A DNA stretch of 60,581 bases from Gemmatimonadales bacterium (GTDB taxonomy: Bacteria > Gemmatimonadota > Gemmatimonadetes > Gemmatimonadales > GWC2-71-9), in the NCBI GenBank assembly GCA_025937755.1, contig JAICQR010000002.1:1-60581 (forward strand). Reading direction: 5' to 3'. The notes beneath the pieces are model-generated. The model searched no databases, was not told the origin of the DNA, and saw only the letters and a program-made list of their open reading frames with translations. Position numbers and translations under genes: made by a program. This document shows, piece after piece, positions 28,925 to 58,208 of this stretch (its first letter is position 1; each line of letters opens with the position of its first letter).

Positions 28925-29032
28925 GGGCGGTAGGGCGGCAGGGCGGTAGGTATGTGAAACGAGGATCCAGGCGTGTTGCCAGGATCCCCGTTCCGCTCAC
29001 TTACCGCCTTACCGCGCTACCGCCATACCGCT
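28925..29032 (+). repeat. octamer-periodic inverted-repeat element A
   Basis: Left arm GGGCGGTA GGGCGGCA GGGCGGTA (28925-28948, plus GGTA). Inner hairpin GGATCCAGGC-GTGTT-GCCAGGATCC (28963-28987). Right arm TTACCGCC TTACCGCG CTACCGCC ATACCGCT (29001-29032), ending at the stop codon 29032-29034 of the upstream minus-strand gene. Confidence 0.85.
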
Positions 29033-30321
29033 TATGGCTTCTGCCCGTGCGGCTGGTCGAAGTGCGCCTGGAGGTTCCCTTCCTCCGCATCCTGCAGGTC
29101 CACCTGCAGCAGGACAGTCGTCCCATCCTGCTCGTAGATCGTGAATCCGGCCGCGTCCAGCGTGCCGTTGCCCTCGCCCCGGTCCACGAAGGTGAACTCG
29201 ATCGGGTAGCCGTCGACGCCGTTGAAGGTGCCGACCGCGGTGCCCTCGAAGGTGTTGATGGGCGCCACCGGCGGCGTCGGATCATCCTCCAGCGAGCAGA
29301 ACGCCGAGGTGATCGGCTTGTCGATGTGCCAGTGGTTGCCGTCACCCCAGTTGATGTTGATGTTGTTCGAGAGCGTGATGTCGCAGTGAATCGTCATTGA
29401 TACGCTCACGTCATCATCACCCGCGGTCGAGCTCAGCTTGCTGACACCGCCGGTCATCCGGCCGTCGAGGCTCTCCGGCACATCCTGCGGCTCCACCCGG
29501 AAGATGTAGTCGTTGTAGTCGGAGTCGAGCGGGTGATCGGTCTCGTCCAGCAGGAGTTCGTTGTCCTCGACGCCAACCAGGTAGGCGTCGCCGGCGTTGT
29601 TGGTGAAGAGCGCGAACTGCTGGAACTGCACCGAGCCAAAGCTTCCCTCGGCATCCGAGCAGTCGGTGTCGGGATCGCTGCAGCCTCCGGACTGGGCATT
29701 GAACGCGTTCTTGATGTAGAAACCCCAGTCGTCGCCACCGGTGTTGATGGTGACTGATGACCCGAGCACGGCGTTGCCCCAGTCCGCCACCGCGTGGAAG
29801 GTGTAGACACCGCCGTCAACGGTGAACCAGCCTACCTCGCTGGGCGATCCGTGGACCGCGCCAACCAGCGACACTTCATACTCGAAATCGCCATTCAGCA
29901 TGAAGGCCGCAGCATCGCGGTTCTCGGTGCCGTCGGCAAAGTACTGCGTAAACCCGCCGGCATTTGCCGCCGTGCCCTCGGTCTCGTTGTCACAATCGGA
30001 GCTGAAGGTGCCGTCGGCGAAGAACCCGATGTTGCACGACGTGGTCGTGCCGTTGTTGTCGGCGGAATTGTTGTCCCAGAACTCGGTAGTGGCGCGACCG
30101 CTGTTGTCGGCGGTGAACGTCTCAAATGCGCCGGGGTCGCCGATCGCGACCACTACTTCGGCCGGGGTGGGGATCGCCTGAATGGACATTCCGTTGAGCG
30201 AGGGGCCACCGAGCGGCTCATTGGGCGCCATCGGGCCGGAGTCACTGCAGGCCGCAAGCAAACCGACCGCGAGCAAGCCGGCCGGAGCCAGCACGCGGTT
30301 GAACGACCGGAACGCGGACAT
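29032..30321 (-). CDS. secreted lipoprotein with DUF4114-like module
   Basis: Lipobox LLAAC. Asp/Asn/Gly/Thr-rich. Motif YLVGVEDNELLLDETDHPLDSDYNDYIFRV resembles DUF4114. Confidence 0.75.
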   Translation of the reverse strand: MSAFRSFNRVLAPAGLLAVGLLAACSDSGPMAPNEPLGGPSLNGMSIQAIPTPAEVVVAIGDPGAFETFTADNSGRATTEFWDNNSADNNGTTTSCNIGFFADGTFSSDCDNETEGTAANAGGFTQYFADGTENRDAAAFMLNGDFEYEVSLVGAVHGSPSEVGWFTVDGGVYTFHAVADWGNAVLGSSVTINTGGDDWGFYIKNAFNAQSGGCSDPDTDCSDAEGSFGSVQFQQFALFTNNAGDAYLVGVEDNELLLDETDHPLDSDYNDYIFRVEPQDVPESLDGRMTGGVSKLSSTAGDDDVSVSMTIHCDITLSNNININWGDGNHWHIDKPITSAFCSLEDDPTPPVAPINTFEGTAVGTFNGVDGYPIEFTFVDRGEGNGTLDAAGFTIYEQDGTTVLLQVDLQDAEEGNLQAHFDQPHGQKP

Positions 30322-30458
30322 GTCATCTACTCCTGAATGGGGGGTCTAGGGCTGACTTCAGGAAAATGAATCGTGTACCGCGTTGATTTACCGCCAGTTC
30401 CGCGTTTGTCAAGCAGCCAACTGTCGAGATATCGGTGGCCAGGGAGCCGACAGTGGTC

Positions 30459-30474
30459 CTGCAACACGTTGCAG
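30459..30474. promoter_or_regulatory. palindrome CTGCAAC-AC-GTTGCAG in divergent intergenic region
   Basis: Perfect 7-bp arms at 30459-30474, within the 285-nt region between the two divergent lipoprotein genes. Candidate operator by symmetry only. Confidence 0.3.
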
Positions 30475-30606
30475 CACAACCTGTTGCGCGCCGCCAATGT
30501 GAGCGGGAGCACAGCGCCGAATCCTTCGCGTTGCCATGCTGTTACCGATGGTGGGCCCGCCTGGATGCGCCGGTGGGCCACCTGCCTACTTCAGAACGGA
30601 GACTGC

Positions 30607-31227
30607 ATGCGATACTTCACCACCCGATTCCTCGGACCGCTCGTCGCAGTTGCACTGACGGGGGGCGTGGTTGCCTGCGATGACGGCACTGATCCGGGCG
30701 AGAGCACGCAGGTGCGCGTGCTCTTGACCGACGCTCCGGGCCAGGTCCAGGCAGCGGTCGTCACGATTTCGGAGGTGTATCTGCAGGGCGGCGGCGATGG
30801 CGAGGGCCGGGTGACGCTGCGCGACGATGAGTTCACCACCGACCTGCTTACCCTGGCCGATGAGACCGAGATCCTGGTTGACGGGACGGACGTGCCCAAC
30901 GACACGTACGGGCAGCTGCGGTTCGTGATCACCGGAGCCTACATCCAGGTGGACAATGGAGACGAGACGTCCAGCATCTACGCCACGTCCGAGGATTATG
31001 CGGGGCTGCCGGCCGGCGCCACAGTGGCTGGCCAGCTCCAGACTCCGAGCTTCGACCAGAGCGGGCTCAAGGTGAACCTGCCGCAGGAAGAGTTGACGCT
31101 GAACGGCGGCACGACCACCTGGCTGGTGGATTTCGATGTGGCGCAGAGCTTCGGGCAGGAGGCGGGCGATCAGTGGGTGATGCACCCGGTGATCACGGGA
31201 ACCCGTGTGGAGACTGAGGTAGAGTAA
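30607..31227 (+). CDS. DUF4382-like lipoprotein
   Basis: ORF 30373..31227 trimmed to ATG 30607 (MRYFTTRFLGPLVAVALTGGVVAC). VRVLLTDAPG...YGQLRFVI...PSFDQSGLKVNL...WLVDFDVAQS. Confidence 0.7.
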   Translation: MRYFTTRFLGPLVAVALTGGVVACDDGTDPGESTQVRVLLTDAPGQVQAAVVTISEVYLQGGGDGEGRVTLRDDEFTTDLLTLADETEILVDGTDVPNDTYGQLRFVITGAYIQVDNGDETSSIYATSEDYAGLPAGATVAGQLQTPSFDQSGLKVNLPQEELTLNGGTTTWLVDFDVAQSFGQEAGDQWVMHPVITGTRVETEVE

Positions 31228-31232
31228 GGCGC

Positions 31233-31267
31233 GAGTCGCGAGTCACGCGGCTTGTGACTTGCAACTC
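31233..31267. terminator. hairpin between convergent genes, built on a tandem heptamer
   Basis: GCGAGTC x2 (31231-31244). Stem GAGTCGCGAGTCAC / GTGACTTGCAACTC (14 bp; 1 mismatch, 1 G:T), loop GCGGCTT. The right arm overlaps stop 31266-31268 of the minus-strand antiporter gene. Confidence 0.5.
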
Positions 31268-32597: not shown

Positions 32598-32598
32598 A

Positions 32599-33867: not shown

Positions 33868-33895
33868 ACCGGGGAGAGTACGTCGTGCATCGCGC

Positions 33896-38576: not shown

Positions 38577-38612
38577 TTTGCTGGCTTCATCTCATTCCCA
38601 GGATGGACTTCA

Positions 38613-38763
38613 CCACGGAGCCACGGAGGACACGGAGTTATCGAGCTATGGCGAGATCGCGCTGTCGTTTTTGTGGCTGTGCCGCAGGCTACGCCGCCTG
38701 GCGCATGCCTCCCACCACAATAGGCTGTTCTCCGTGAGTCTCTGTGTTCTCTGTGTCTCTGTG
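38613..38763 (+). repeat. octamer-periodic inverted-repeat element B
   Basis: Left arm CCACGGAG CCACGGAG GACACGGAG (38613-38637), then a 92-nt spacer with internal short stems. Right arm CTCCGTGAG TCTCTGTGT TCTCTGTG TCTCTGTG (38730-38763), ending 1 nt before stop codon 38765-38767 of the aminotransferase gene. Confidence 0.85.
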
Positions 38764-38764
38764 G

Positions 38765-39931
38765 TTAACTCACCGCCCTCAGCGCGTCGTCCAGCACGGC
38801 GAGAGCCTCCGCTATAACGGCATCGGTGTGCGCGAGGGACACGAAGTTCCACGGCGTCCGCTTGAAGATGAGCCCGCGACGGGCGCACTCCAGTGCCACC
38901 CGGGCACCGGCGTCCTCATCCACCCACTCGAAGGCACACATCACCGGGATGCCCGTGACCTGGCGGATCACCGCCGGGTGCCGCTGCGCGAGACGGGTCA
39001 TGCCTTCATGCAGCGCTGCACCCGCCCGTGCCAGCGTCGCCGGGACATTGCCGGACCGCACGGTCTTGATGGTGGCGTGCGCCGCCGCCAGCGACATGAA
39101 CTCGGTGGCGAGGGTCGAGCTGATCCATGTCTTCCCGATTGCCGCCATGGCCTCGTCGGTCCCGCCGACCGCTGCGAGCGGCATTCCGTTGGCGATGGCC
39201 TTGCCGACTACCACCAGATCCGGCTCCCCACCCCAGCGTTCAGTGGCTCCGCCCGGCGCCACTCGGCACACGGTCTTCACCTCATCGAAGATGAGCTGGG
39301 CGCCCACCCGGCGGGTCTCCTCGCGCACAGTCTTGAGCCACTCCACCGTTGGCTCGGTGTGAATGACCGGCTCCAGCACCACGGCGGCCAGCTGCTCCGC
39401 CGTGGTACGGATGGCCACCCGGCTGGCATCGACGTCATTGAACGGCACTGGCGATGCGAGCGTTCCGAGCGCGCGCGGAACGCCGGCCGCACCAGCATCC
39501 TGGCTCCAGTCCAGCCAACCATGGTAGCCGCAGGTGAGGACTCGCTCGCGCCCAGTCGTGATTCGCGCCAGCCGCACCGCGGCCGCCACGGCCTCGGCGC
39601 CGGTCTTGAGGAAGCGCCACCGCGGATGCGCGGGAAAGAGCGCCGCGAGGTCCGCGGCGACGGTCTCCTCCAACTCGGGCGCCACCGGCCCCACGCCGCC
39701 AGCCTCAGCGGCGGCACATACGGCCGCCACCACTGCCGGATGACCGTAGCCAAGGGACACCGCGCCAAGCCCCATGACGAAGTCGACGTACTCCCGGCCC
39801 CGCACATCGACGATGGTGCAACCCGCAGATCGGCGCAGCAGTCCCGGCGCGGCATCGTCGTTGGCATACCGGCCGTAGAGCGCCCGACGCGTCTTGCTGC
39901 CGGTGGATGTCTCACCCGCAATGTGGGACAT
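38765..39931 (-). CDS. class-III (GSA-aminomutase-like) PLP aminotransferase
   Basis: ORF 38765..40012 trimmed to M28 (MSHIAGETS). DFVMGLGAVSLGYGHP, KTGAEAV, IFDEVKT, and VVGKAIANG (PLP Lys). Confidence 0.85.
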   Translation of the reverse strand: MSHIAGETSTGSKTRRALYGRYANDDAAPGLLRRSAGCTIVDVRGREYVDFVMGLGAVSLGYGHPAVVAAVCAAAEAGGVGPVAPELEETVAADLAALFPAHPRWRFLKTGAEAVAAAVRLARITTGRERVLTCGYHGWLDWSQDAGAAGVPRALGTLASPVPFNDVDASRVAIRTTAEQLAAVVLEPVIHTEPTVEWLKTVREETRRVGAQLIFDEVKTVCRVAPGGATERWGGEPDLVVVGKAIANGMPLAAVGGTDEAMAAIGKTWISSTLATEFMSLAAAHATIKTVRSGNVPATLARAGAALHEGMTRLAQRHPAVIRQVTGIPVMCAFEWVDEDAGARVALECARRGLIFKRTPWNFVSLAHTDAVIAEALAVLDDALRAVS

Positions 39932-42654
39932 CAGGTGAGCTCGAGCACGCCGAGCCTGGATGCGTCCTGCCGGTCTCCCCGGAGCCAGACCCAGCCGCCA
40001 CCACCGCTCCACGTAAGCTGGCCCGCGCGCCGCTCGCGGCCCGAGCGCATCTCATTGACGATCAGGTCGAAGCGAAGCTTCCGGGCAAGCACCACATCGT
40101 TCCAGAAGGGCGGGGCCAGGGCCATCGTCACCCGATAGCCATCGTCGGTCTCCGTCCAGGCGGCCGATGCTTCCACCGGTGCAGCGGCCGCGAGTCCGAC
40201 TGGCCGCATGCGTACGGTACCGCCCGGCTCAGGCACCATGAGCACACCCCAGTGCCCTCCCGCGCCGTCGCCAACGTGGACCTGGATGCCGTCCGAGTGG
40301 ATATCATCGGGCTCGTTGTCGAGTTCCAGCGCCGGCGCGTCGGCCGGGCGGAACCACAGTTGGTCCTTCCGGACGTCCACCGCGACGTACAGCGCATCAA
40401 TATCCCAGTTGACGAATGCCACGGCACCAAAGACTTCGGCGCCGGGATACGGCTCCTCGCTCCGCCGGTACTGATCGTCGTGATCGATGTGGAGCAACTC
40501 GCCATCGTCAAAGCCGTCCATGCTGCCATCGAGCGTCGGTGGCTCGGGCACGTGGAGCGCAACACCGCGCTCGGGCTCCTTCCGGTTGCGGGTCACCAGT
40601 GGCTCGAACTCGACCACCTTGGCCCTCCGTCCGCCGAGCTGCACGGTGCCGGTGGCGGTAGCGACCTGCCATCCGTCGCTCACTTCAGCGTGGAGATCCT
40701 CGCCACGACCGAGGCTGACCTTGACGCTGGCTCCTGCGACTGCGAGGTCGGTCACGGTGCGGGCCGGCGCCAGCACCGCAGCAAGCGACAATCCCCGACC
40801 GCTGATGGCTACCAGGTAGAAAGTCGCCTCGGGTGCACCGGGAACGCCGGGGGCGACTGCACGGAGCAGCGTGGTGCCTGCAGGGAGCACCAGGTCCAGC
40901 TCAGCGCCATCGCGGACTGCGCGGATCACCAGCGGACCCGGCGCCTCGGGGACGAAGTGCGCACCGTCGTGGGTGAACTCGCCCGGCACCTCCTCGGGCT
41001 CCCACCGACCTCCGTTGACCACGCGCGTTTGTCCTGCCAGATGCCAGGGCAGGTGGAGCAGATGTGGCTCGGCGCCTGCCAGTTGCACCAGGTCGAGCAC
41101 GTAATCGGGAGCGGTCACCACGGTGCGGGTGAGATCGCCCCATTCCCCGCGGCCCCAGGCCCAGCCGTCGCTGCCGACGTCGAAAGCCCGGACGTCCGCG
41201 TGAGCAAAGGACTGGGACGTGCCGTCCAGCATCGGCGCATTGTGCGCCAGCGTGCTCCGATACCAGAAGAGATCGCGCTGCAGGTACGATCCGGTGCCGG
41301 GATCAGGCAGCCAGTGGACGCCGGCGTCATGCAGCGTCAAGTGCAGCCGGTCGGGGTGGCCGTGGCCACTTGCCCAGGGGCCGCCCTCCAGGGACACATA
41401 GCGGTCTTCATGTCGCAGCACGATGAGCCCTGCCTCTTCGAGCAGGGTGCTCTCCGCTGCGACGCCCCCTTCCTCCTCGGCGAGCTCCGCCAGCCCCATC
41501 AGCATCGCGTTCCATGAGAGTGACGCGCGAGAGCGATGTTCCGAGATAGGCAGTCCCGCTTCGTACAGCCAGGAGTCAAATTCCAGTGCCGGCTGACCTG
41601 GCTCGGAGTACAGCTCACGCAGCCACTGCTGCATCCCCTCCACCTCGGCGCCTTCCCTGCCGTCGAGCAGGCCGAGCCCCACTTCCCAGAGTTCGAGATA
41701 CATCGGCTGGCCCAGCGAAACGCCGTAGCGCGCGTCCTGGCGGGCGGGAAAGGTTCGATCAGGCAGCGCCGTCAGCATTGGAGCGCGCAAGGCCAGCGAG
41801 AGCCGCGTCGCCAGCGCCGCATCCGCCAGCACGTCGACGCCGGCCTGTCCGGCCCACCGGATTCCGCGCTGCATCCCCTGGAGAGAGAAGAGGTGATAGT
41901 TCTCGCCCTCGTGCCAGGTGCCGTCGGTGCCGAAGCCATGGGCCAGGTGGGCCAGAAGACCGACGTCGCTCTCGATGGCGCGCGCGGCGAGTTCTTCGTC
42001 CTCGAACCAGCATGCCACCGCGGCGAGCGCGGCGTTGTGCCACACCTGCCGATTGGAGAAGCCTTCGTTGAACTCCCCGATCAACGCGGCTGATTCATCG
42101 GCAATCCGGTCCACGATGCCGACCAGCCGCTCTTCCAGCACGCCGGCATCCCGCAGCAGGAACGCCGCAGACAGGAGGTCGGTGATCCAGATCGATTCCA
42201 GATAGGTGGAGAAGAAGAGCCGCGCAGGGCCGAGCACGTTGTCGAGGTTGGGATACTGATCGTATCCCGCGTAACTCTCGATGACCCGGGTGGCGCCGCG
42301 CACCAGTGCGTCGTCGCCGGACAAAAGTCCGGTTGCGGCGAACTGTGCGGCCTGGGCCGCGGCCCACAGATGCTGAAAGCGCGCGAAGAAGCGACGCTGG
42401 CGCTCGCCCCCCTCGGTCGTGCCGCATGCGGAGCAGCGAAACCAGTTGGGCGCCCATGGATCGAACTGCAGAGATGCGCCGTCCCGGGGGCAGGCCGCAC
42501 CGTTCCGGGAAAGCAGCGCCTTGTCCTTTGGGATGGCGATGCCGCGCTGGAGCACAGCCGCGGACCGCTCGTGCAAGCTCGTACGCAGCGCCGAGAGATC
42601 GGACGATGCTTCGATCAACGCATCGCGCTGCGCCAGGTCTTCTGCCGTTACCAT
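39931..42654 (-). CDS. heparinase II/III-like (alginate-lyase fold) protein with Cys4 ribbon and C-terminal CBM9-like domain
   Basis: ORF 39931..42762, start moved to M37 (alternative M31). CPRDG...CSACG; HEGENYHLF; GHGHPDRLHL (Hepar_II_III-like); C-terminal FVNWDIDALYVAVDVRKD. Confidence 0.75.
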   Translation of the reverse strand: MVTAEDLAQRDALIEASSDLSALRTSLHERSAAVLQRGIAIPKDKALLSRNGAACPRDGASLQFDPWAPNWFRCSACGTTEGGERQRRFFARFQHLWAAAQAAQFAATGLLSGDDALVRGATRVIESYAGYDQYPNLDNVLGPARLFFSTYLESIWITDLLSAAFLLRDAGVLEERLVGIVDRIADESAALIGEFNEGFSNRQVWHNAALAAVACWFEDEELAARAIESDVGLLAHLAHGFGTDGTWHEGENYHLFSLQGMQRGIRWAGQAGVDVLADAALATRLSLALRAPMLTALPDRTFPARQDARYGVSLGQPMYLELWEVGLGLLDGREGAEVEGMQQWLRELYSEPGQPALEFDSWLYEAGLPISEHRSRASLSWNAMLMGLAELAEEEGGVAAESTLLEEAGLIVLRHEDRYVSLEGGPWASGHGHPDRLHLTLHDAGVHWLPDPGTGSYLQRDLFWYRSTLAHNAPMLDGTSQSFAHADVRAFDVGSDGWAWGRGEWGDLTRTVVTAPDYVLDLVQLAGAEPHLLHLPWHLAGQTRVVNGGRWEPEEVPGEFTHDGAHFVPEAPGPLVIRAVRDGAELDLVLPAGTTLLRAVAPGVPGAPEATFYLVAISGRGLSLAAVLAPARTVTDLAVAGASVKVSLGRGEDLHAEVSDGWQVATATGTVQLGGRRAKVVEFEPLVTRNRKEPERGVALHVPEPPTLDGSMDGFDDGELLHIDHDDQYRRSEEPYPGAEVFGAVAFVNWDIDALYVAVDVRKDQLWFRPADAPALELDNEPDDIHSDGIQVHVGDGAGGHWGVLMVPEPGGTVRMRPVGLAAAAPVEASAAWTETDDGYRVTMALAPPFWNDVVLARKLRFDLIVNEMRSGRERRAGQLTWSGGGGWVWLRGDRQDASRLGVLELT

Positions 42655-43658
42655 GTCCGCACCCCTTCCCATGACCACTCGACCGGCAGCAGGCTGCTGC
42701 CCTCTGCTTCCAGGACCCGCGCCACGTCCCGCTCGCGTCCAGGCGCAAGGAATACCATGCATCCGCCTGCGCCGGAACCGGCCGCCTTGGCACCGATGGC
42801 CCCGGCCGCACGGGCACGGGCCTCCAATGCTCCCATCAACGGTGTGCGCATCCCGGCGTCCAGTTCCTGCTGGTGGCGCCAGTTGGCATCGAGTGCCGCG
42901 CCGACTGCGGCGAGATCGGCAGCAAGGAACGCCGCGATCATCGCGTCCGCGGCATCACGAAGTCCGTGCAGTGCCGCGTTGATGCCGCGCTCGCCTCGCT
43001 CATACGCCTGCATCACGCGCGTGATAGTGCCGCCCGACAGGCGCGACGCTCCGGTCCAGCAGAGCACCAGACTCCGAGCCAGTTCGGCGGCGAATTCGCG
43101 ATCAACCGCAATCGGATGGTGACCCACGTCAGGATCGCGGAACGTCAGGTCCTGAAAGCCGCCCAGCGCAGCCATGTACTGGTCCTGCTTCCCACCGGGA
43201 ATGGCTGCGTCCCGGGTCTCCAGTTCCCACGCGACGTGCGCCAGGTCCCTCGCGCCGAGTTGCTCGCCTCGTGCATGCAGCAGCGCTGCCGCGACGGCCA
43301 CACTGCATGCCCCGCTGGAGCCGAGTCCCGAGCCCTGTGGCACGTCGGTGCGCGAGGTGATGGTCGCGGGGCCCGGCGGCCAGCGCAGAACCGCGGCCTC
43401 CAGCAGGGGCACGTGGCCCGTCCCCGCCCGCGTCCCACCATCCTCGAGCGTCACGGTGGCGCCCAGGTCTTCCGCCACCAGGTGCACACCATCGCCGCCC
43501 GGGAGCACGTTGACGTGGGCATGCAGCGCCAGGGCCGCGGAGATCACTCGGCCGCCTTCTCGAGTCGAGAACGGCGGTACGTCGGTCCAGGCGCCGGCAA
43601 AGTCGATGCGGACCGGCGCCGACGCATGCGCGCGCCGGCTGCTCACTCGGTGCTCCAC
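42648..43658 (-). CDS. GHMP-family sugar kinase
   Basis: GTG start. APVRIDFAGAWTDV and the GHMP motif PQGSGLGSSGACSVA. Confidence 0.8.
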   Translation of the reverse strand: MEHRVSSRRAHASAPVRIDFAGAWTDVPPFSTREGGRVISAALALHAHVNVLPGGDGVHLVAEDLGATVTLEDGGTRAGTGHVPLLEAAVLRWPPGPATITSRTDVPQGSGLGSSGACSVAVAAALLHARGEQLGARDLAHVAWELETRDAAIPGGKQDQYMAALGGFQDLTFRDPDVGHHPIAVDREFAAELARSLVLCWTGASRLSGGTITRVMQAYERGERGINAALHGLRDAADAMIAAFLAADLAAVGAALDANWRHQQELDAGMRTPLMGALEARARAAGAIGAKAAGSGAGGCMVFLAPGRERDVARVLEAEGSSLLPVEWSWEGVRTW

Positions 43659-45079: not shown

Positions 45080-46052
45080 GGCCACTGCTCTGCTTCGCCA
45101 TGGCGTTCGTGGCGTACTGGTGCTGCTGGGCGTCGTAACGCTCACGTTCCTCCTGTTGCGGATGGCACCGGGCAATCCCGCGCTGCTGCTGCTCGGTCCC
45201 AATGCCGGACCGGAACTGGTGGCGGTGCAGGAGCGCGAGCTGGGGCTGGATCGCCCGCTGCCGGTGCAGTATGGCGCATGGCTCACCGCCTTCGCCACCG
45301 GCGACTGGGGGCGCAGCATCGCCACCGGCAGGCCGGTGCGCCAGATGATCGGCGAGGCCTGGCCGGCCACGCTCTGGCTGGTCGGCACTTCACTGCTGCT
45401 GAGCTTCCTGCTGGGCACCACCATCGGAGCCATGCAATCGTCACGCAGTGGCAGCCCGGTCGACACCGTGCTGTCGGTGGGCACCGTCACTCTCTTCGCC
45501 ATGCCCAGCTATTGGCTGGCATTGCTGCTGGTGCTGGTGTTCTCGTACGGGCTGCAGTGGCTTCCCGCCTTCGGCGCGGCCGGATTGGATGCCGACTTCC
45601 TGTCGCCCGGGGCCCGGCTGCTGGACGCGATGCGCCATGCCACCTTGCCGCTGGCGACCCTCACGCTCATCGGCGTGGGCGGCATCGCGCGCTACGTCCG
45701 CGCGGCGATGCTCGACGTGCGCGGCCTTCCCTTCGTGAATGTGGCGCGGGCCAAGGGCATTGCGGAAGCCCGGGTCACCCGTCGTCATGTGCTGCGCAAC
45801 GCCTTGGTGCCGGTGGTCATTCTGCTGGGCCTGTCTCTGCCGGCGCTCTTCTCGGGCGCGGTGTTCATCGAAGCCATCTTCGCCTGGCCCGGGGTCGGGC
45901 GGGTCCTGGTAGAGGCAGTTCAGGCACGCGACTACCCGGTGGTGATGGCGGCGGTCGCCGTGAGTGCGGCACTGGTGGTGGCGGGCAACATGCTGGCGGA
46001 CATCCTCGCGGCGCTGGTGGATCCGGTGCGCCGGGAGCCGGAGTCCGCGTGA
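45078..46052 (+). CDS. ABC transporter permease (DppB/OppB-like)
   Basis: N-terminus VLVLLGVVTLTFLLLRMAPGNPA plus an EAA-like loop. 324 aa. Confidence 0.9.
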   Translation: MATALLRHGVRGVLVLLGVVTLTFLLLRMAPGNPALLLLGPNAGPELVAVQERELGLDRPLPVQYGAWLTAFATGDWGRSIATGRPVRQMIGEAWPATLWLVGTSLLLSFLLGTTIGAMQSSRSGSPVDTVLSVGTVTLFAMPSYWLALLLVLVFSYGLQWLPAFGAAGLDADFLSPGARLLDAMRHATLPLATLTLIGVGGIARYVRAAMLDVRGLPFVNVARAKGIAEARVTRRHVLRNALVPVVILLGLSLPALFSGAVFIEAIFAWPGVGRVLVEAVQARDYPVVMAAVAVSAALVVAGNMLADILAALVDPVRREPESA

Positions 46053-46914: not shown

Positions 46915-49512
46915 TTACCGAACCAGGTAAGTCACGATCTCGTGCGGCCCGGCGAGGATCTCCAGCACCCCGTCGGCGGTGATCGACGCGGGCCCCTGGG
47001 GCGTCTCGTCGGCGCGGGCACGTGCGGCGCTGGCCGGCGGCGGCGAGATGATCCAGCGTCCGGCGACCGGCTCGTCCCGCAGATTGACCGCGCGCAGCAC
47101 CATGGCATCGCCCCGCTCCGACGGCTTGATCGCGCTCACCACCAGGCCCTCTCCCTGCAGGGCAATGCCGGCATTCGCCGGCGGCGACACCACTGCACCT
47201 CGCAGCACCCGCGCGGCCGGCAGCAGGAAGGCGCGTTCCCACAACTGATGCAATGCATCAGGCCGCGCCGACTGCGGCAACGGTGCGATCGCGATCTCCA
47301 CCCTGCCGGGGCCCTGGCACTGCGCCTCCGGAGTAGACGTGGGCCACGCTGCGTGCCCTGGCCGGGCGGCAAGGTCTCCCCGCGACAATTCGCCCACGGA
47401 CCGCAGCAACGTGAAGCAGAGATGACCTGCCTCGGTCCACTCGTACTCGAAATGCCCTGGAGCAAGCAAGGCGATCGCCCCGCGAGAGCCCGCCGCCGCC
47501 ACATAGCGCTGTGCTGGTGCAGTACCGGCGGATTGCTCCGCGCCGCCGCCGGCATCGCGCTCCTGCGCTCGGCGCTCGACCACGAAGGCTGATCCCGCCA
47601 CCGCCGGACCGCGCGGCTTTCCCAGAGGAAACCGCAGCCGGAGCCGCCGGTCCCTCCCCCGATTGTCCCAGTCGATCATCAGACGAACGAAGGGCTCGCC
47701 CCCTCGCAGTTCGAGTGTCACTGCGCCGGCACACTCGGCATCCGTGAATTCATTGCGGACGGCACCCAGCAATGGCCCCTCGGCCAGCACGCGCCAGCTG
47801 GAGAATCGCTCGATGCGCCGCACCGGCCCCGGAAGCTCGGCGGTATAGCAATCGCCTGTGTCGGGCTCACTCTCCACCTGCGCCAGGCCTTCGAGGCCGT
47901 TTCGGCCGGGCAGCGCAGCCAGCGCGAATGTTCCATCGGAGGAAAGTGCGGCTCGAAGTGCCGAGTGCTCGAGTGCGTGCTCCGTGGCGCGGACCCCTCC
48001 GTCCGAAGCAGCAGCGATACTCCTGCCCGGCACGATACGGAGACCAGCGATCCCGAGGCCTCCGACAGCCGGCGCACGGAACGCCAGCCGCACGACCTCG
48101 ACCGCATCCGCATCGGGATAGCGATGCCGCGCATCTCGGCGTTCGATGCCCTGACGCCGGCCGAGCGTCTGTGTCGCCACCGCGCTGCCATCGCGCGCGA
48201 TCAGCGTGATCTCCGCCGGGGCCACCGCTTCGCGCGCTGTCCGCCCGCGGGGCGGCCCCACCAGGATATCGCGCAGGAAGAGCGGGATATCGGCGGTGAC
48301 GACCGCGCCAGCGGTGACGGCGCGCGGATTGAACACCAGCATGGTGCCGTCGGAACTCGCGGTCCCCACCACCACATCGGGATCGTACCCAACCAGCCGG
48401 TGCACCGCGCTGGAGATGATCTCCCTGCCCAGTGCCACTGCGTTCTCCACCCGCCGTGCCGCCTCCTGTGCAACGCTGTCCGCAACCGTGCCGGCACTGG
48501 TATCGTGGAACTGGTTGGAGACGAGGGGCTCCCACGCAGCGCGCAGCAGCGCGGCCTGGCGCGGGTTGTCGCCCGCCCTGCCGGCCATCGCGGCCAGTGG
48601 CTCGGCCCCACGCTCGAGCCAGAGTTCCGCCCGGCTCTGCGCGCGCTTCAGCGGCAGCCGGGTGCCGTGTATCCCTTGCAGCGCCCACACGTGGCGCGTG
48701 GTACGGCGCAATTCGCCGCGCACCGGTGCGATGTCCGGGCCCAGTTCTCGTTCGGTCGCTTCGAGGCAGTCGGCCAGGGACGAGACGACCACCCTGGCAT
48801 CGGGTTCCAGCCGGGCGAGCGCCGAGGCGAGCGCTGCAAGGTCCAGTCGTGGGGCGTGGTGATCGGCGCCGATGAAGACCGCGACCTGACTGGTCGATGC
48901 CCGGCTGACCAGCGTGTGCCGTACCGCGGGCCAGGCGCGCGCAAGGGCTGTGGGATCGGTTGGAAGCCCCGCGCCGATTTCGTAGCCATCGGGCGACAGG
49001 TGATACGTGCGCAGGTCGCGACCGTCGGGCGCCCGCCAGCGGAATACGTCCCGTGCGCCGCCATAGCCGCGCCAGATCAGCGCCCACTCGAGGCCAAACT
49101 CGCGCGCGAGCGCCGGCAGCGCGGCCGGATGGCCGAACGCGTCGGGCGCGTAGCAGACGTGCGCGCGGCCGCCCAGCGCGGCGGTCGTGGCGGTCCCACG
49201 AAGAAGATTGCGGATCAGTGCCTCGGCTGACGGGACGAAGCCGTCGGGCAGGACCCACCAGGGGCCGGTGGCAAGCAGCCCGGCGCGCACGTGTGACGCC
49301 ACCTCACCCCGGCGTTCGGGTCGTACCGCGAGATAATCGGCCAGCAGCGCAGCCTGACCGTCGAGCAGGAAGGGCGCTGCGGTCCCGGCGGATGCAGCAT
49401 CGAGCCAGCTGTCGATTGCTTCCACCAGTCGCGGCAGCAGCCGGGCGCGTGAGAGGTACCACTCGCGGTCCCAGTGGGTGTGCGAAATCAGGTGAAAAGT
49501 GAGCGGCTGCAT
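46915..49512 (-). CDS. glycoside hydrolase family 38 alpha-mannosidase-like
   Basis: N-terminus HLISHTHWDREWY and DAFGHPAALP, typical of the GH38 catalytic domain. 865 aa. Confidence 0.85.
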   Translation of the reverse strand: MQPLTFHLISHTHWDREWYLSRARLLPRLVEAIDSWLDAASAGTAAPFLLDGQAALLADYLAVRPERRGEVASHVRAGLLATGPWWVLPDGFVPSAEALIRNLLRGTATTAALGGRAHVCYAPDAFGHPAALPALAREFGLEWALIWRGYGGARDVFRWRAPDGRDLRTYHLSPDGYEIGAGLPTDPTALARAWPAVRHTLVSRASTSQVAVFIGADHHAPRLDLAALASALARLEPDARVVVSSLADCLEATERELGPDIAPVRGELRRTTRHVWALQGIHGTRLPLKRAQSRAELWLERGAEPLAAMAGRAGDNPRQAALLRAAWEPLVSNQFHDTSAGTVADSVAQEAARRVENAVALGREIISSAVHRLVGYDPDVVVGTASSDGTMLVFNPRAVTAGAVVTADIPLFLRDILVGPPRGRTAREAVAPAEITLIARDGSAVATQTLGRRQGIERRDARHRYPDADAVEVVRLAFRAPAVGGLGIAGLRIVPGRSIAAASDGGVRATEHALEHSALRAALSSDGTFALAALPGRNGLEGLAQVESEPDTGDCYTAELPGPVRRIERFSSWRVLAEGPLLGAVRNEFTDAECAGAVTLELRGGEPFVRLMIDWDNRGRDRRLRLRFPLGKPRGPAVAGSAFVVERRAQERDAGGGAEQSAGTAPAQRYVAAAGSRGAIALLAPGHFEYEWTEAGHLCFTLLRSVGELSRGDLAARPGHAAWPTSTPEAQCQGPGRVEIAIAPLPQSARPDALHQLWERAFLLPAARVLRGAVVSPPANAGIALQGEGLVVSAIKPSERGDAMVLRAVNLRDEPVAGRWIISPPPASAARARADETPQGPASITADGVLEILAGPHEIVTYLVR

Positions 49513-49633
49513 GCGATCTCAGGCCCGTCCGCGCAATCTCGTGAGTTTACAAATCGGAACAACCTTCCTACAGTTGTTGACGTTCCCATGTGACAGGCGT
49601 TGCTCGTGGCCTCGCTTGCCAGGATTCCCGCCC

Positions 49634-50692
49634 ATGCGATTTCCAGTCTCCGAGCCGCTACCGGACGGCTCGGCACGGTGTCTTGTTGTGGACGCCGATC
49701 CCGACGTGCGCGAAGCCCTGACGTGTCTGCTGGAAGCCCAGGGCTTCAGCTGCCACTCGGCGGCGTCCGGGCTCGATGCCCTGCGCCAGCTCTCGCGCGA
49801 GCGCGACCTGCCACTGATCATCTCCGACCTCCGGGTGCCCGACCTCGACGGCTTCCGCTTCCTCGCGGAAGTGCACGACCGCTCGCCTGACGCCGCGGTC
49901 ATCCTGATGAGCGCTGCCGCCGATGCGCCCACCGCGGTGGAGTGCATGCGGCAGGGCGCGTCGGACTTCCTGCTCAAGCCGGTTTCCCTTCATGAGCTCG
50001 AGGCCCGCGTCACCAGCGCCCTCGAAAAACGTGCGCTCCTGCTCCGCGACCGGTTCTACCAGCAGCACCTCGAATCCCGACTCCAGACCCAGGCCAACCG
50101 CATCAAGGAGCTGTTCCTCCAGGGCGTGCAGTTGCTGGCTCGCGCACTCGAGGCCAAGGACGCCTATACCCGGGGCCACAGCATTCGGGTGAGCCACTAT
50201 GCGGTCGCAACCGCGCGCCGGATGGGCGTGAAGGGTCCGTCGCTGGACGACATCCGGCTCGGCGGCGAGCTGCATGACATTGGCAAGATCGGCACCCGCG
50301 AAGCTGTGCTGCACAAGCCCGGCAGCCTCACGGAGGCGGAAGTGGGACAGATACGCGAGCACGTCACGCTTGGCGAACAGATGCTGTCCCCCCTGGCCCA
50401 CGAGTCACCCACCGTGCTGCGCTGCGTTCGCTCCCATCACGAGCGAATGGACGGGAAGGGATTCCCGGACGGCCTCGCCGGCGGCAAGATTCCCATCGAG
50501 GCCCGCATCATCGCCGTCGCCGACGCGTTCGACGCCATGACCACCCTCCGCCCGTATCGCTCGCCGTTCTCACCCGACACCGCGCTCCATGAGCTCCGCC
50601 GCGTCTCCGGCACCCAGCTCGACGCCGAGGTGGTGCTGGCGTTCAACGACATCTATCCGGACCTCCAGGCCCTGGTGCCGGCGACACTGTAG
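49634..50692 (+). CDS. response regulator with HD-GYP phosphodiesterase domain
   Basis: ORF 49499..50692 trimmed to M46 (MRFPVSE). Receiver domain (VVDADPD...IISDLRVPDLDG...LLKP). HD-GYP domain (GHSIRV, ELHDIGKIG, HHERMDGKGFPDGL); the GYP motif reads GFP. Confidence 0.85.
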   Translation: MRFPVSEPLPDGSARCLVVDADPDVREALTCLLEAQGFSCHSAASGLDALRQLSRERDLPLIISDLRVPDLDGFRFLAEVHDRSPDAAVILMSAAADAPTAVECMRQGASDFLLKPVSLHELEARVTSALEKRALLLRDRFYQQHLESRLQTQANRIKELFLQGVQLLARALEAKDAYTRGHSIRVSHYAVATARRMGVKGPSLDDIRLGGELHDIGKIGTREAVLHKPGSLTEAEVGQIREHVTLGEQMLSPLAHESPTVLRCVRSHHERMDGKGFPDGLAGGKIPIEARIIAVADAFDAMTTLRPYRSPFSPDTALHELRRVSGTQLDAEVVLAFNDIYPDLQALVPATL

Positions 50693-50694
50693 AA

Positions 50695-50775
50695 GTGTGA
50701 GAGTGTGGGAGTGTAAGAGTGTGCCAGTGTGCGGGCACTCCCATACTCGCATACTTCAACACTCTCACACTCTTA
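50695..50775 (+). repeat. octamer-periodic inverted-repeat element C (arms adjacent, no spacer)
   Basis: Left arm GTGTGAGA GTGTGGGA GTGTAAGA GTGTGCCA GTGTGCGG (50695-50734). Right arm CACTCCCA TACTCGCA TACTTCAA CACTCTCA CACTCTTA (50736-50775). It starts 3 nt after the HD-GYP stop and includes the DUF58 stop at 50773-50775. Confidence 0.85.
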
Positions 50776-52083
50776 GAGCAGCCCCCTCCGCTTCAGCTGG
50801 TGATACCCCTCCACCACCGCGTCCGCGGCCGCATCCGGCGGCACATCCAGCACCAGCACTCCCTGCCGGCGCATGAGCGCCAAGGCGTCGCTTCGCGCCT
50901 GCAGCAGGTTCTCGGCGGCGGCGCGCTCGAATGCGTCGGCCTCGGTCGCAGGACGGGCCGTAGCGGTGCGCTCCAGCGCGGGGTCGCGCAACGTCACCGC
51001 CACCGGCAGGTGCCTCGGGCGCAGTGAACCAGTCTGGGCCACCAGCGCCGAACTTGCCGCACGGTCGATGACATCAGTGAACAGAACCGTGAGCGCACGG
51101 CGACGGCTGCGGAGGGCCAATTGCCGGAATGCCGCGGGGTAGTTGCTCTCCTCCAGACGTCCCTCCACTGCGGCCAGCGCACCCAGGACCGCCCGCAATC
51201 CCCGCCGCCCGCGGCGCGGCGGTGTGAAGGACTGCACGGTATCGGCAAAGACCAGGATGCCGATGTCATCATCCTGCTCCACGGCGGCATGTGCCAGGCG
51301 CAGCGCAGCACCGATGGCCCGTTCGAGCCTGGGGGTGCCATCGGATTCGGCGGCAAGCAGCCGTCCAGCATCGAGCACCAGCAGCACCTGTTGCCGGCGT
51401 TCATCCTCGTAGATCCGGGCCATCGGCTTCCCGCGGCGAGCAGTAGCCTTCCAGTCGATGATGCGCGTGTCGTCGCCCTGCACCCACTCGCGCAGACCCT
51501 CGAACATCCGGCCCTCACCCGGCCGCCGGGCGGTGCGCTGCCCCGCCTCGCGCCGCCGTTGGGCCTGGGTCGGCAGGCCGCGACGAGCGACGCCGGTCAG
51601 CGATGGAAAGACGGTCGCGTCCCAGGGGAGGTCGAGCCGGGACTGCCGCCATGCGAGACCCCATGGACCCAGGCGGCGAAGCCCGATGCGACCGCCGCTG
51701 TCCTGGCCTCTGCGCAGCGGCGTGATGTCGACCCGCTCGTCGGTGAATCCCGGCTGCAGCAGCAGTCGCCGCTCAGGAAGCGCATTACCGCCCAGTGGCT
51801 CGGGCCACCACTCGCGGACGCGGATCTCCTGGGTCCGGTTCCCGCCCAGTGCCCAGCGATAGCGCACCGGGAAGGTGCGGCCCTCCGAGAACGCCGGCGG
51901 CGCTGTGCGCGAGACATCGACCGGCCATCGGCCAGCGGCCAAGCCGTCGCGAACAAGGGCCGCGAGCCACAGCGCCTGCAGCAGCAGCGACCATGGCGCA
52001 GCACCGGGCCACCAGAGGCCCAGCAGCGCCAGGCAGGCAATACCGCCCGCCACCGCGAGCCATCGCGGGGTCGGAATGATCAC
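50773..52083 (-). CDS. DUF58 (vWA-like) domain protein
   Basis: Two N-terminal TM helices. GEGRMFEGLREWVQGDDTRIIDWKATARRGKPMARIYEDE is the DUF58 signature. GTGA overlap with the MoxR stop. Confidence 0.85.
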   Translation of the reverse strand: MIIPTPRWLAVAGGIACLALLGLWWPGAAPWSLLLQALWLAALVRDGLAAGRWPVDVSRTAPPAFSEGRTFPVRYRWALGGNRTQEIRVREWWPEPLGGNALPERRLLLQPGFTDERVDITPLRRGQDSGGRIGLRRLGPWGLAWRQSRLDLPWDATVFPSLTGVARRGLPTQAQRRREAGQRTARRPGEGRMFEGLREWVQGDDTRIIDWKATARRGKPMARIYEDERRQQVLLVLDAGRLLAAESDGTPRLERAIGAALRLAHAAVEQDDDIGILVFADTVQSFTPPRRGRRGLRAVLGALAAVEGRLEESNYPAAFRQLALRSRRRALTVLFTDVIDRAASSALVAQTGSLRPRHLPVAVTLRDPALERTATARPATEADAFERAAAENLLQARSDALALMRRQGVLVLDVPPDAAADAVVEGYHQLKRRGLL

Positions 52084-54803: not shown

Positions 54804-54806
54804 GCT

Positions 54807-55658: not shown

Positions 55659-55781
55659 GGCGCTGTTCACTGGCGGTCTCCGGTCGAGGTGACGGGTTGA
55701 GGGAGGAATTCCCGAAAGGTGGCCCTGTTGGGGCCGTGGCGCGAGTGGCGGAGGCACGCTCGCCGGGCCTACGTTGTGTGC

Positions 55782-57545
55782 ATGGTCGCATCAGCTTCGG
55801 GTTCGTCGCTCACCCGCCACCTCGCCATCGAGACGCCGGAGAATGTCCGGCTGGAGCACGAGGTCGCAGGCCTGGGCTCGCGCGCGGCAGCAGCCGTCAT
55901 CGACCAGACCCTCATCGGGGTGCTGTTCCTTGCGCTGGCGATCCTCCGTGGGGTGACTGGCGTGGGCGGCAGCTGGACCGGCGCGCTGGCCATACTGGCG
56001 ATGTTCGGTCTCTGGTACGGCTACTTCATCTTCTTCGAGGCGCTGCGCGACGGGCAGACGCCCGGCAAACGGATGATGGGCATCCGGGTGGTGATGGTGA
56101 CAGGACATCCTGTCAGCCCCGGCGCCGCCGTCATCCGCAACCTGCTTCGCACCGCCGATTTTCTTCCCCCGCCCTACCTCCTTGGGGCAATCCTGGTCGC
56201 GCTTCATCCCAGGGCCCGCCGCCTGGGGGACCTGGCAGGCGGCACAGTGGTGGTGAGGGACCACCCCCAGCTGGTCGCGCGGCCGCAGGCGGCGCCGGTC
56301 ATCACCCACAGTCCATCACCCCCGCTTGCCACGCCGCGCCTCACCGACGCCGATTTCCAGCTGCTCGGAGCAACGCTCGCGAGGCTTCCTGACCTGGCAC
56401 CCGATGCCAGCCAGCGACTGCTGTCCGCTTTGGGTATGCGGCTCGGGCGCGCGCTGGCGGAAGTGGACCCGTCGCTCGATCTCGCTACGAAGCTCGCGAC
56501 ACTGCACCAGGACGAGACCGCCAGGAGGGAAACGGGAAGGGGGCTTGGGAGCCAGTGGATGCTGCTGGAAGTTCGGCAGCGGGAGCGGTGGGACGAGTTT
56601 GCCCTGCTTTCCGAGCGGGCCCGGCGCCAGGGCCTGGATAGCTTCGCGGCGGCGGAGCTGCCCGCGTTCGCTGCTCGCTATCGCGAGATAGCTGCAGACC
56701 TCGCGCGGCTCCGCACCTACGGCGCGCCGACCGACACCGTGGCACGGGTCGAGCGGCTGGTTGCCGCCGGCCACAACGCGCTCTATCGCTCCGATCGGGG
56801 CGGATTCCGCAGACTCTGGCGGGTACTGGCCGTCGAGTCGCCCGCAGCGGTCGCCGGCGCACGCTGGTATGTCCTGGCCGGATTCCTCGCGTTCATGATC
56901 CCGGGCACGATCGGTTACCGGATGATACGGGACCAGCCGGAGCGTGCCGAGGAAGTGCTGCCGGTCGTGATGCTCGAGCGCGCGGCAGCCGGCGCCGCGC
57001 GCGCGGCGGCCGGAGACCGCTATGTGTCAGTAGCCATCAGCGGGCGGCCGTTCACCGCGTCCTGGATCATCACCAACAACGTGCGTATCGCCTTCTTCTG
57101 CTTCGCCGGTGGAATCTTCGCGGGGATAGGCGCCCTGGTGCTGCTGGCGTTCAACGGGTTGCTACTGGGAGCGGGAGCGGGGCATTTCGCCAACGTGGGG
57201 CTCTTCGCCTACCTGGGCGAGTTCGTGCTGAGCCACGGCGTGCTGGAACTCACGGCGATCTGGATCGCGGGGGGCGCCGGCTTCATGCTGGGCTACACCC
57301 TCATCGTGCCGGGACGGTTGTCGCGCGCCGATGCGCTGGCCGCCGCAGGGCGGCGGGCCGTACGGATGCTGGCATTTGCGGTGGTCTGTCTGGTGGTGGC
57401 GGGAGTGATCGAAGGATTCGTGTCGACCAGCGGCGCCGGCTGGGCCGGGAGGTTCGCCGCGAGCGGCATCACGCTCACTTTCCTGGCGGTATATCTCGGA
57501 ATGGGAACGCGCTACGCAAAAGGCTATGCCGCAGGCGGCGACTGA
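55782..57545 (+). CDS. fusion protein: RDD-family domain + SpoIIM-like (DUF95) membrane domain
   Basis: ORF 55719..57545, start taken at M22. RDD part has AAAVIDQTLIG...RDGQTPGKRMMGIRVV...RRLGDLAGGTVVV. After a linker of about 150-200 aa comes a DUF95-like part, ITNNVRIAFFCFAGGIFAGIG...SHGVLELTAIWIAGGAG. Confidence 0.75.
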   Translation: MVASASGSSLTRHLAIETPENVRLEHEVAGLGSRAAAAVIDQTLIGVLFLALAILRGVTGVGGSWTGALAILAMFGLWYGYFIFFEALRDGQTPGKRMMGIRVVMVTGHPVSPGAAVIRNLLRTADFLPPPYLLGAILVALHPRARRLGDLAGGTVVVRDHPQLVARPQAAPVITHSPSPPLATPRLTDADFQLLGATLARLPDLAPDASQRLLSALGMRLGRALAEVDPSLDLATKLATLHQDETARRETGRGLGSQWMLLEVRQRERWDEFALLSERARRQGLDSFAAAELPAFAARYREIAADLARLRTYGAPTDTVARVERLVAAGHNALYRSDRGGFRRLWRVLAVESPAAVAGARWYVLAGFLAFMIPGTIGYRMIRDQPERAEEVLPVVMLERAAAGAARAAAGDRYVSVAISGRPFTASWIITNNVRIAFFCFAGGIFAGIGALVLLAFNGLLLGAGAGHFANVGLFAYLGEFVLSHGVLELTAIWIAGGAGFMLGYTLIVPGRLSRADALAAAGRRAVRMLAFAVVCLVVAGVIEGFVSTSGAGWAGRFAASGITLTFLAVYLGMGTRYAKGYAAGGD

Positions 57546-57736
57546 TCCTCTTCGGTGCTCTCCCGCAGCACGGTCCGCATCCGCAGCGCCAGCTTCTCGA
57601 TTTCCCGGAGTGCCGTCACGGACGTTTCGTCCATTCCATTCGGGTTGAGCAGCAGCAGCTGGACCTCGGCCAGCAACGCCGCCAGCGGATTGGCAATGGA
57701 ATGGCGAAGCCGAGCCAGCGGATCCAGTTGTTTCAT
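57524..57736 (-). CDS. small stand-alone HisKA-like (H-box dimerisation) protein, 70 aa
   Basis: ORF 57524..57865 trimmed to M44 (MKQLDPLARLRHSIANPLAALLAEVQLL). The H-box-like RHSIANPL is followed by a second helix. No ATPase domain. Starts 8 nt after the upstream gene's stop. Confidence 0.45.
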   Translation of the reverse strand: MKQLDPLARLRHSIANPLAALLAEVQLLLLNPNGMDETSVTALREIEKLALRMRTVLRESTEEDQSPPAA

Positions 57737-57743
57737 GGGGCGC

Positions 57744-58025
57744 TCAGGCCAGCGAACGGAAGAGGTCGCGCAGGTGGTATCGGCCCAGAGCCCGGACCGA
57801 ATGCCACAGATCATCGAAGGTCGGCGCGCAGAAGATTTCGGCGGTAGTGCGAGGCGGTTCATCATCGGCCTGGAACTCGAGCCGGGCGCGCCAGACGCCG
57901 TCGTCGGCGAGCCGGGCCATCAGCCGGACCAGGACATCCTGGCCATCCAGCCGCATGGGCTCGAGGTCGCTTGCAAACGGATCCCGCTGGTCGCGGGGTG
58001 GCACATGGGCGGGCTTCCGCAGCAT
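57744..58025 (-). CDS. hypothetical protein, 93 aa
   Basis: Last 93 codons of ORF 57744..59426, starting at ATG 58025 and preceded by GAGGAG. GC-rich third positions. No family recognised. Confidence 0.5.
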   Translation of the reverse strand: MLRKPAHVPPRDQRDPFASDLEPMRLDGQDVLVRLMARLADDGVWRARLEFQADDEPPRTTAEIFCAPTFDDLWHSVRALGRYHLRDLFRSLA

Positions 58026-58075
58026 CGCAACTCCTCTCGATGCGTGGTTGGTATAACATAGGGCGGTAGGCGAAA

Positions 58076-58208
58076 GTGTGGGAGTGTGGGAGTCTGGGAG
58101 TGTGGGAGTGTGGGAGTGTGGGAGTCGGGGGGTGTGGGAATGCGTCGGCCCAGCCCATCGATTCGCCACACTGCCCAACACTCTCACACTCTCACACTCA
58201 CACACTAC
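58076..58208 (+). repeat. octamer-periodic inverted-repeat element D (largest)
   Basis: Left arm has 8 units, 58076-58139: GTGTGGGA x6, plus GTCTGGGA and GTCGGGGG. The spacer is 27 nt and contains ATCGAT. Right arm 58167-58208: CACACTGC CCAACACTCT CACACTCT CACACTCA CACACTAC, overlapping the M50 stop at 58205-58207. Confidence 0.9.

Follow-up and report, generated by a model that had tools for sequence, protein, structure and literature searches.

Octamer-periodic hairpins at gene ends in a Gemmatimonadota genome and their likeness to described bacterial repeats

Introduction

Arrays of short tandem repeats close to stop codons are known from Xanthomonas and Nostoc. Each Xanthomonas genome contains approximately 185 arrays of GGGAATC (Rehm et al. 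2015, PMC4692102), and 70-75 convergent array pairs per genome are capable of forming a stem-loop (PMC4692102). These arrays, and those of GGGGA(C/T)T in Nostoc, are located 0-50 bp from a stop codon or overlap it. They are transcribed and, according to Rehm et al., show no association with mobile elements (PMC4692102). The Xanthomonas repeats form G-quadruplexes (G4; PMC4692102). Short tandemly repeated repetitive (STRR) elements of Cyanobacteria can form hairpins, for example between hupS and hupL, for which stabilisation of the transcript has been proposed (PMC2670836). Repetitive extragenic palindromic (REP) elements in 3' untranslated regions both stabilise mRNA and, in part through Rho, attenuate transcription, and where they are located varies between strains (bioRxiv 10.64898/2026.03.23.713779). 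Here, four hairpins, A-D, are described from a 60,581-nt stretch of contig JAICQR010000002.1 of a Gemmatimonadales bacterium (assembly GCA_025937755.1); the whole stretch is referred to as the window. These hairpins are genuine and do not reflect chance, and they belong to a described kind of bacterial repeat and not to a new class. New are the octamer period, the coexistence of several unit families, and the phylum. A preliminary description of the same DNA, made from the sequence alone, knew of no described class with this design; STRR hairpins are laid out in the same way, as are the heptamer arrays found in Xanthomonas and Nostoc (PMC2670836, PMC4692102).

Results

Elements A-D are four intergenic hairpins in which a tandem 8-nt array faces its own reverse complement. 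The single design that the preliminary description ascribed to the four loci is borne out, and the period-8 arrays are recovered in place by Tandem Repeats Finder (TRF), with the right arm of B seen by eye. At period 8, the elements contain 3.0-8.1 head-to-tail copies, within the definition of the STRR and heptamer class (6-9-nt units in at least 2-4 copies). In the window, nine arrays with a period of 7-9 and at least three copies are observed, compared with 0.75 +/- 0.89 in dinucleotide-preserving shuffles.

Element A (28923-29031) is located between tandem minus-strand genes. Read on the plus strand, it consists of a left arm of (GGGCGGTA)x3.2 (28925-28950, TRF), a GGATCC..GGATCC core hairpin (~28960-28995), and a right arm of (CTTACCGC)x4 (29000-29031, TRF, 4.0 copies). 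The right arm stops 1 nt short of the stop codon (29032-34) of the minus-strand gene 29032-30321, and the next minus-strand gene begins at 28846. Element B (38613-38764) also separates tandem minus-strand genes. Its left arm, (CCACGGAG)x3 (38613-38637, TRF, 3.0 copies), is 37 nt upstream of the start of an amidohydrolase gene (38576). Across a spacer of approximately 88 nt, its right arm, CTCCGTG + (CTCTGTG)x3 (38726-38764), abuts the stop codon (38765-38767) of an aminotransferase gene (38765-40012, minus strand).

Element C (50694-50773) occupies the whole gap, stop codon to stop codon, between two convergent genes, a plus-strand response regulator with an HD domain (49499-50692) and a minus-strand DUF58 gene (50773-52083). 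Its left arm (50694-50731) is a (GTGTGRGA-like)x4.8 array and its right arm (50736-50773) is the inverted array, also with 4.8 copies; both are reported by TRF. The right arm ends at 50773, where it overlaps the DUF58 stop codon (50773-75). Element D, again between tandem minus-strand genes, comprises paired arrays at 58075-58206 and, counted with an adjacent remnant, spans 58059-58206. The remnant, TAGGGCGGTAGG (58059-58070), is an A-type unit, and GGGCGGTAGG is found at 58061. The left arm, (GTGTGGGA)x8.1 (58075-58139, TRF consensus AGTGTGGG), is 49 nt upstream of a small minus-strand gene (57744-58025). After a 38-nt spacer, the right arm, (ACACTCTC)x3.6 (58178-58206, TRF), overlaps the stop codon (58205-07) of a minus-strand gene for an M50 peptidase (58205-59365). 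The placement of the C/T-rich arm at a minus-strand stop codon, as first described, therefore holds at all four loci: the arms end at 29031, 38764, 50773, and 58206, and they either leave a gap of 0-1 nt before the stop codon or overlap it.

The GC content of the window is 68%, at which the raw minimum free energy of a sliding window does not discriminate. Each locus folds as a single long interrupted hairpin. On the plus strand, the energies are -76.0 (z -7.5) for A, -73.9 (z -4.1) for B, -52.5 (z -7.3) for C, and -92.6 kcal/mol (z -8.8) for D. The minus strand, which is the mRNA-sense strand for A, B, and D, is also stable, with -76, -59, -40, and -77 kcal/mol for A-D. The plus strand is more stable by 13-15 kcal/mol in B, C, and D, and the strands are equal in A. 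The hairpins are well beyond shuffled sequence (z -4 to -9). Arm complementarity spans 30-60 bp, and the purine-rich arm is always the 5' arm. The local density of hairpins in the 60-kb window is approximately 1 per 12 kb.

A terminator pattern scan of 28-40 kb, which covers A and B only, flags neither stem; its single weak plus-strand site is within the B spacer. An Rfam scan of the whole window at the gathering threshold matches only a tRNA-Arg, and a scan of 28-59 kb at E<=1 gives only sub-threshold look-alikes of miRNA precursors on D. The lack of an Rfam match fits an absence from curated RNA families and is no proof of novelty. A CRISPR identity is ruled out by the contiguous units, which have no spacers. 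Back-up stop codons in three frames (TAG or TGA within the units) were dropped as a general explanation: such codons occur in A-type and GTGTGAGA units, and the explanation fails for the units of B and of relative L072.

A fifth element of the same design, P20 (3694-3800), is located between convergent genes and extends from the TGA of the plus-strand gene 2440-3693 into the 3' end of a minus-strand EamA gene (3772-4788). Its units are approximately 20-21 nt long (GGAACTGCAA..GCGTGAACGGGAG, ~21 nt). P20 is ~80% identical over ~110 nt to positions 1582-1705 of the relative L085, the site orthologous to C, so that the two copies lie at non-orthologous gene ends. On this match, P20 behaves like a dispersed REP-type palindromic family.

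The units were first described as locus-specific. This does not stand, as C and D have GTGTGRGA in common and the unit of A recurs beside D. Units with a GGCGG core, as in A, also recur at 7134-7183 and 44040-44106. The array at 7134-7183 (plus strand) is G-rich and unpaired, with three 8-mers, (GGCGGTCA)x3, and three 9-mers, (GGGCGGTCA)x3. It accounts for the final ~17 codons of the gene 5245-7194, which encodes a GntR-aminotransferase, and is G-rich on the coding strand. The array at 44040-44106 (minus strand) is (GGCGGCTC)x8.4 within an SBP_bac_5 solute-binding gene (43643-45502, minus strand). It is translated in frame as the low-complexity stretch AAEPPSRPAAESPNRRAAEPP, and the alignment of the protein to solved homologues stopped at the array. 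Because this array is inside a gene, 8-nt slippage arrays also form away from hairpins. Of the two period-8 coding arrays initially proposed, the one at 44040 is thus confirmed, and the one at 7134 consists of 8-mers for only half of its units. A proposed miniature version at 31230-31267, between convergent stops at 31227 and 31266, is a small hairpin (z -3.3); it has merely two copies of CGCGAGT, is absent from the relative L090, and is a weak member of the group.

Orthologous sites were compared among relatives. At site A, a canonical GC-rich hairpin is present in L090 (86% amino acid identity), L128 (80%), and L095 (51%), and it is followed by a U tract in L090 and L095. L130 (77%) shares the 5' units of the window and a GGATCC-type core hairpin, followed by TTTTG. 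Its 3' side is expanded to five GCTCGTCG units and eight 9-mers, so the arrays are very unequal. L091-93 (83%) contain a complementary 9-mer array, at which the contigs end. At site B, the CACGGAG arms are retained in L091 together with a portion of the spacer, and additional outer CACGAAGG/CTTCGTG arms are present on both sides. At site C, L085 contains the P20-type element instead. At site D, two relatives with neighbouring proteins ~82-83% identical contain (TAGGGCGG)n, which is the unit of A. Around this site, the left flank can be aligned as far as ACATAGGGCGGT and the right flank as far as CCCGAACGG; between these points the sequences are unrelated. The A-type hairpin at site D of L084 has -81.0 kcal/mol on the plus strand and -66.8 on the minus strand. 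L090 contains no such arrays in the 7.8 kb examined. The Logan contigs that cover the gene beside A do not differ from the window and therefore show no population variation.

Copy number and unit length vary among close relatives, and the comparison shows fast turnover at orthologous sites. The comparison at site A is direct evidence that these hairpins and canonical terminators take each other's place at a single site, which is a new point.

More arrays are present in the Gemmatimonadaceae relatives L061, L072, and L084-L088. In the distant members L061, L072, L086, L087, and L088, they are located directly after stop codons. L061 has GGGAATA/GGGAATC units with an inverted partner, and L072 has CGGGAAG-type units. 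By one criterion, two paired loci are found in the 60-kb window and two in ~1.2 Mb from other phyla, which amounts to an enrichment in this lineage. Outside the phylum, the design is present, though rare. One case, in Oscillochloris (L067), is a periodic-arm hairpin with a T8 tract.

Arrays of GGGCGGTA and GTGTGGGA are also found in IMG/VR contigs, where most matches in pattern scans are two-copy chance matches and real arrays are limited to L116, L117, L123, and L125/126. L123, labelled viral, has GGGGAATA/GGGCAGTA/GGGCGGTA arrays on the minus strand from ~3000, with an inverted partner and a T tract. L125/126 have at least seven GGGCGGTA units at contig ends, and L117 has GTGTGGGA arrays with inverted partners. 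Hairpin arms of CACGRAG/CACGAAAG are present in L063 (17890-18200), L087 (2204-2230), L088 (5760-5852), and L091 (1423-1650). The hosts of CACGRAG-type arms range from an unclassified bacterium of 51% GC to Gemmatimonadaceae relatives.

Mismatches were recounted from the arm alignments with both strands treated alike. In A-D, there are 13 transition mismatches of the G:T type (plus-compatible), five of the A:C type (minus-compatible), and 12 transversions. The G:T excess reported previously is present in these raw counts, but it represents few independent events, and A alone has three of the G:T type and four of the A:C type. In B and D, every transition mismatch comes from one unit variant that recurs along an arm (CACGGAG/CACAGAG in B and GTGTGGGA/GTGTGAGA in D). 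Because counts produced by one variant amplified along an arm are non-independent, the excess was rejected as evidence of selection. Among elements in a tandem gene context, including those of relatives, the counts are 17 and 6 raw and approximately 12 and 6 after amplified variants are collapsed. A trend of wobble-compatible mismatches on the antisense strand is suggestive and not established.

Discussion

The heptamer arrays and A-D have their layout features in common. Both consist of short tandem units and are mostly intergenic. In both, the G-rich strand is either the coding strand, near the stop codon, or the non-coding strand, directly before the open reading frame (ORF) that follows. 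The right arms of A-D are within the distance to the stop codon reported for the heptamers, and the array at 7134 overlaps the end of its ORF. Convergent pairs are frequent among the heptamer arrays; A-D and P20 are all paired, with the purine-rich arm first. Copy number varies among relatives in both, while the type of site is kept. The unit itself differs. In place of GGGNATC/GGGGAYT, the window has the 8-mers GGGCGGTA, GTGTGRGA, and CCACGGAG, and only L061 has GGGAATA/GGGAATC. Unit length is 8 nt in the present case (with others of 9 and ~20 nt) and not 7 nt, and the phylum is different. Unlike the heptamers, several unrelated families occur in one genome, some of them without G3 tracts (CACGGAG), and whole cassettes, including canonical terminators, swap at orthologous sites.

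STRR sequences, which were described earlier than the heptamers, resemble A, B, and D in their short tandem units and in a possible intergenic hairpin between co-oriented genes. They differ in having 7-bp units drawn from few canonical sequences and in being restricted to heterocystous cyanobacteria. REP elements and bacterial interspersed mosaic elements (BIMEs), known from enterobacteria and pseudomonads, are, like A-D and P20, extragenic palindromes at 3' ends between tandem (A, B, and D) or convergent (C and P20) genes. They are palindromes of 20-40 nt in near-identical copies, whereas A-D have stems of 100-150 nt with periodic arms and unrelated loops. A-D have units in common but not loops or ends, and only P20 has a full-length relative. 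Intrinsic terminators occupy the same slot as A, are carried by relatives at the A site, and resemble the A core hairpin. The canonical form is a GC-rich hairpin with a 7-9-nt U tract; A-D lack this tract, and their stems are several times longer and periodically interrupted.

With moderate confidence, A-D are read as REP/STRR-like hairpins at 3' ends, which would serve as attenuators and mRNA stabilisers and whose arms would have grown by replication slippage. In this reading, they are the Gemmatimonadaceae counterpart, mostly octameric, of STRR hairpins and of the convergent GGGNATC pairs of Xanthomonas. The upstream gene's transcript, of the minus strand at A, B, and D and of both strands at C, would fold into a long, imperfect hairpin with its start at the stop codon. 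We infer that A-D protect the 3' ends of transcripts and damp read-through into the next or convergent gene; the hairpin would block 3'-to-5' exonucleases, as REP/BIME elements do in E. coli. A short U run or Rho would probably assist termination, since no proper U tract is present. In favour of this reading are the contact of all four right arms with stop codons, the stop-to-stop fit of C, the folding energies on both strands, the terminators at the A site of relatives, the periodic arms with a true T tract in L067 and L123, the enrichment in this lineage, and the literature on similar arrays.

In this model, both halves of an ordinary terminator-type stem would be amplified by slipped-strand mispairing, which would make the arms complementary by descent and allow several pairing registers. 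Each arm would homogenise independently afterwards, arrays would extend until coding sequence is reached, and whole cassettes would be rapidly replaced between lineages. The data agree with the shared generating mechanism raised in the preliminary description, taken as slippage of repeats around a stem. Each arm has its own unit variant and has homogenised independently of its partner. Growth of the arms is unequal, with 8.1 and 3.6 copies in D, and unpaired arrays are present at 7134 and within the gene at 44040.

Several observations weigh against this reading. No U tract follows the stems of A-D, with at most three U on either strand, and at least one bacterial RNA polymerase requires a U tract for termination at a hairpin (PMC3993855). 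The transition mismatches tend to cost the mRNA-sense hairpin more stability than the antisense hairpin, which a function purely at the mRNA level would not predict. Unrelated loci, and unrelated genomes too, contain the units GGGCGGTA, GTGTGGGA, and CACGRAG, for which local slippage alone is insufficient. Because arrays without a partner exist, the hairpin is not the whole explanation.

If the 3'-end reading is correct, a poorly studied phylum marks many of its transcript ends with fast-evolving repeat hairpins and not with classical terminators. This would bear on the prediction of operons and terminators in high-GC soil bacteria. It would account for the frequent contig breaks and fold-backs at gene ends in metagenomes of these organisms. 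The series at a single site, from canonical terminator to 8-mer arms to 9-mer arms, could be used to study the birth and replacement of terminators, and the STRR/GGGNATC class would be extended to a new phylum and unit length.

A functionless by-product is an unlikely alternative. An unusually high rate of 7-9-nt slippage in this lineage, starting from terminator stems, would let arrays accumulate after stop codons, where selection is weak. The very fast turnover is as expected from such a process, as are L090 with its array-free 7.8 kb, the unbalanced arms and unpaired arrays, the arrays inside coding sequence, and the exact halt of arrays at coding sequence. The retention of a structured element at the A site in most relatives despite replacement of its sequence is not, and neither are the maintenance of complementarity over 30-60 bp and the constant 5' position of the purine-rich arm.

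Dispersed mobile palindromes, similar to REP/RAYT elements or to MITEs (miniature transposable elements with inverted repeats), could instead insert into or replace terminators, with the units being internal to each family. The different units were at first taken to argue against the spread of one element. This argument fails, since several loci share the same unit families, which are also present in other genomes and in non-orthologous positions. The match of P20 across two genomes points in the same direction. Layouts are nested, with D inside an A-type remnant and with inner and outer arm families at the B site of L091. At the A site, the type of cassette does not track protein identity, and contigs frequently break at arrays (L061, L072, L085, L087, and L091-93). 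The loops and termini, however, are unrelated both between A and the D site of L084 and between C and D. No target-site duplication is seen at element boundaries in comparison with relatives that carry a different element, so the terminal inverted repeats plus target-site duplication of a MITE are not found together. REP elements are linked with the RAYT transposase. No transposase, Y1-transposase, or RAYT Pfam domain is present among the 41 ORFs of the window that were scanned. The heptamer arrays are likewise without mobile-element association (Rehm et al., PMC4692102). Taken with these points, a mobile origin is quite unlikely.

A broader proposal is that in Gemmatimonadaceae and some other soil lineages an active, novel process builds and exchanges periodic cassettes at gene ends that displace canonical terminators. 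Their hairpins would be tuned to antisense folding, as insulators against backward transcription or as single-stranded DNA substrates of a novel enzyme, and a conserved trans-acting factor would underlie the recurrence of units. This is speculative and doubtful as a whole. If it were true, chance would not be the reason why GGGCGGTA, GTGTGGGA, and CACGRAG recur in different loci, genomes, viral contigs, and phyla.

A function of the plus (antisense) strand, whether as antisense RNA, as a block on backward transcription into gene ends, or as single-stranded DNA, is very improbable. It would account for the tolerance of G:T wobbles on that strand, for the greater plus-strand stability of B, C, D, and the A-type hairpin in L084, and for the 17 to 6 count of transition mismatches in tandem contexts. 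That count is not significant once the variants are collapsed, and neither A nor the B site of L091 shows an asymmetry. The plus-strand RNA function that was originally derived from G:U wobbles relies on very few independent substitutions, and no plus-strand gene reads into A, B, or D. Upstream of A and B, neither a plus-strand gene nor a promoter-like site is present, and the plus-strand ORF beside D is a shadow ORF.

A G4 or a periodic array of protein-binding sites (for instance, Rho at the C-rich arm or a CsrA-like protein that binds GGA), with the inversion being incidental, is scarcely credible: the left arm of D is G3N5 x8 and has the required four G3 tracts, units of the GGGAATC and CGGGAAG types in L061 and L072 resemble the G4-forming Xanthomonas repeats (PMC4692102), many units contain GGA, and relative L095 has a Rho gene, but four G3 tracts are missing in B and C and also, on the mRNA-sense arm, in A and D (the left arm of A has three GGG and one GG), no motif is common to all units, and pairing would sequester the C-rich arm.

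Additional observations

Contigs also fold back at arrays. L072, a Gemmatimonadaceae contig from a metagenome-assembled genome (MAG), doubles back at 10880-11122, right after (CGGGAAG)x4. Reverse-complemented sequence of the gene end makes up its last ~135 nt, which indicates an assembly artefact in which the contig folds back at a repeat hairpin. In the Gemmatimonadota MAG contig L097, a self-complementary (TGACGTC)x5.3 array (19729-19765) fills the 37-nt gap between convergent stop codons.

The gene content of the window is ordinary for a chromosome and includes transporters, kinases, amidohydrolases, and a MoxR/DUF58 operon. The nearest homologues of the MoxR-type ATPase are in Gemmatimonadaceae MAGs (66% and 60% identity). 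A lineage-specific 429-aa protein has homologues that, where the source is named, are all from Gemmatimonadota, Gemmatimonadaceae, or Gemmatimonas.

Beside D, the plus-strand ORF 57555-58061 was considered as a convergent partner and ruled out. Substitutions relative to L085 fall on third codon positions of two minus-strand genes, so the ORF is their shadow. One small minus-strand gene (57744-58025) encodes 93 aa and has the ribosome-binding site GAGAGGAG. Another (57524-57736) encodes 70 aa with a HisKA-like H-box and overlaps the 3' end of an RDD/SpoIIM gene by 22 nt.

Downstream of the 7134 array, a tRNA-Arg(CCG) gene (7234-7307) is followed by a textbook terminator, CCCCGCC..GGCGGGG + TTTTTCTTT (7326-7362). 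This genome therefore employs canonical terminators too.

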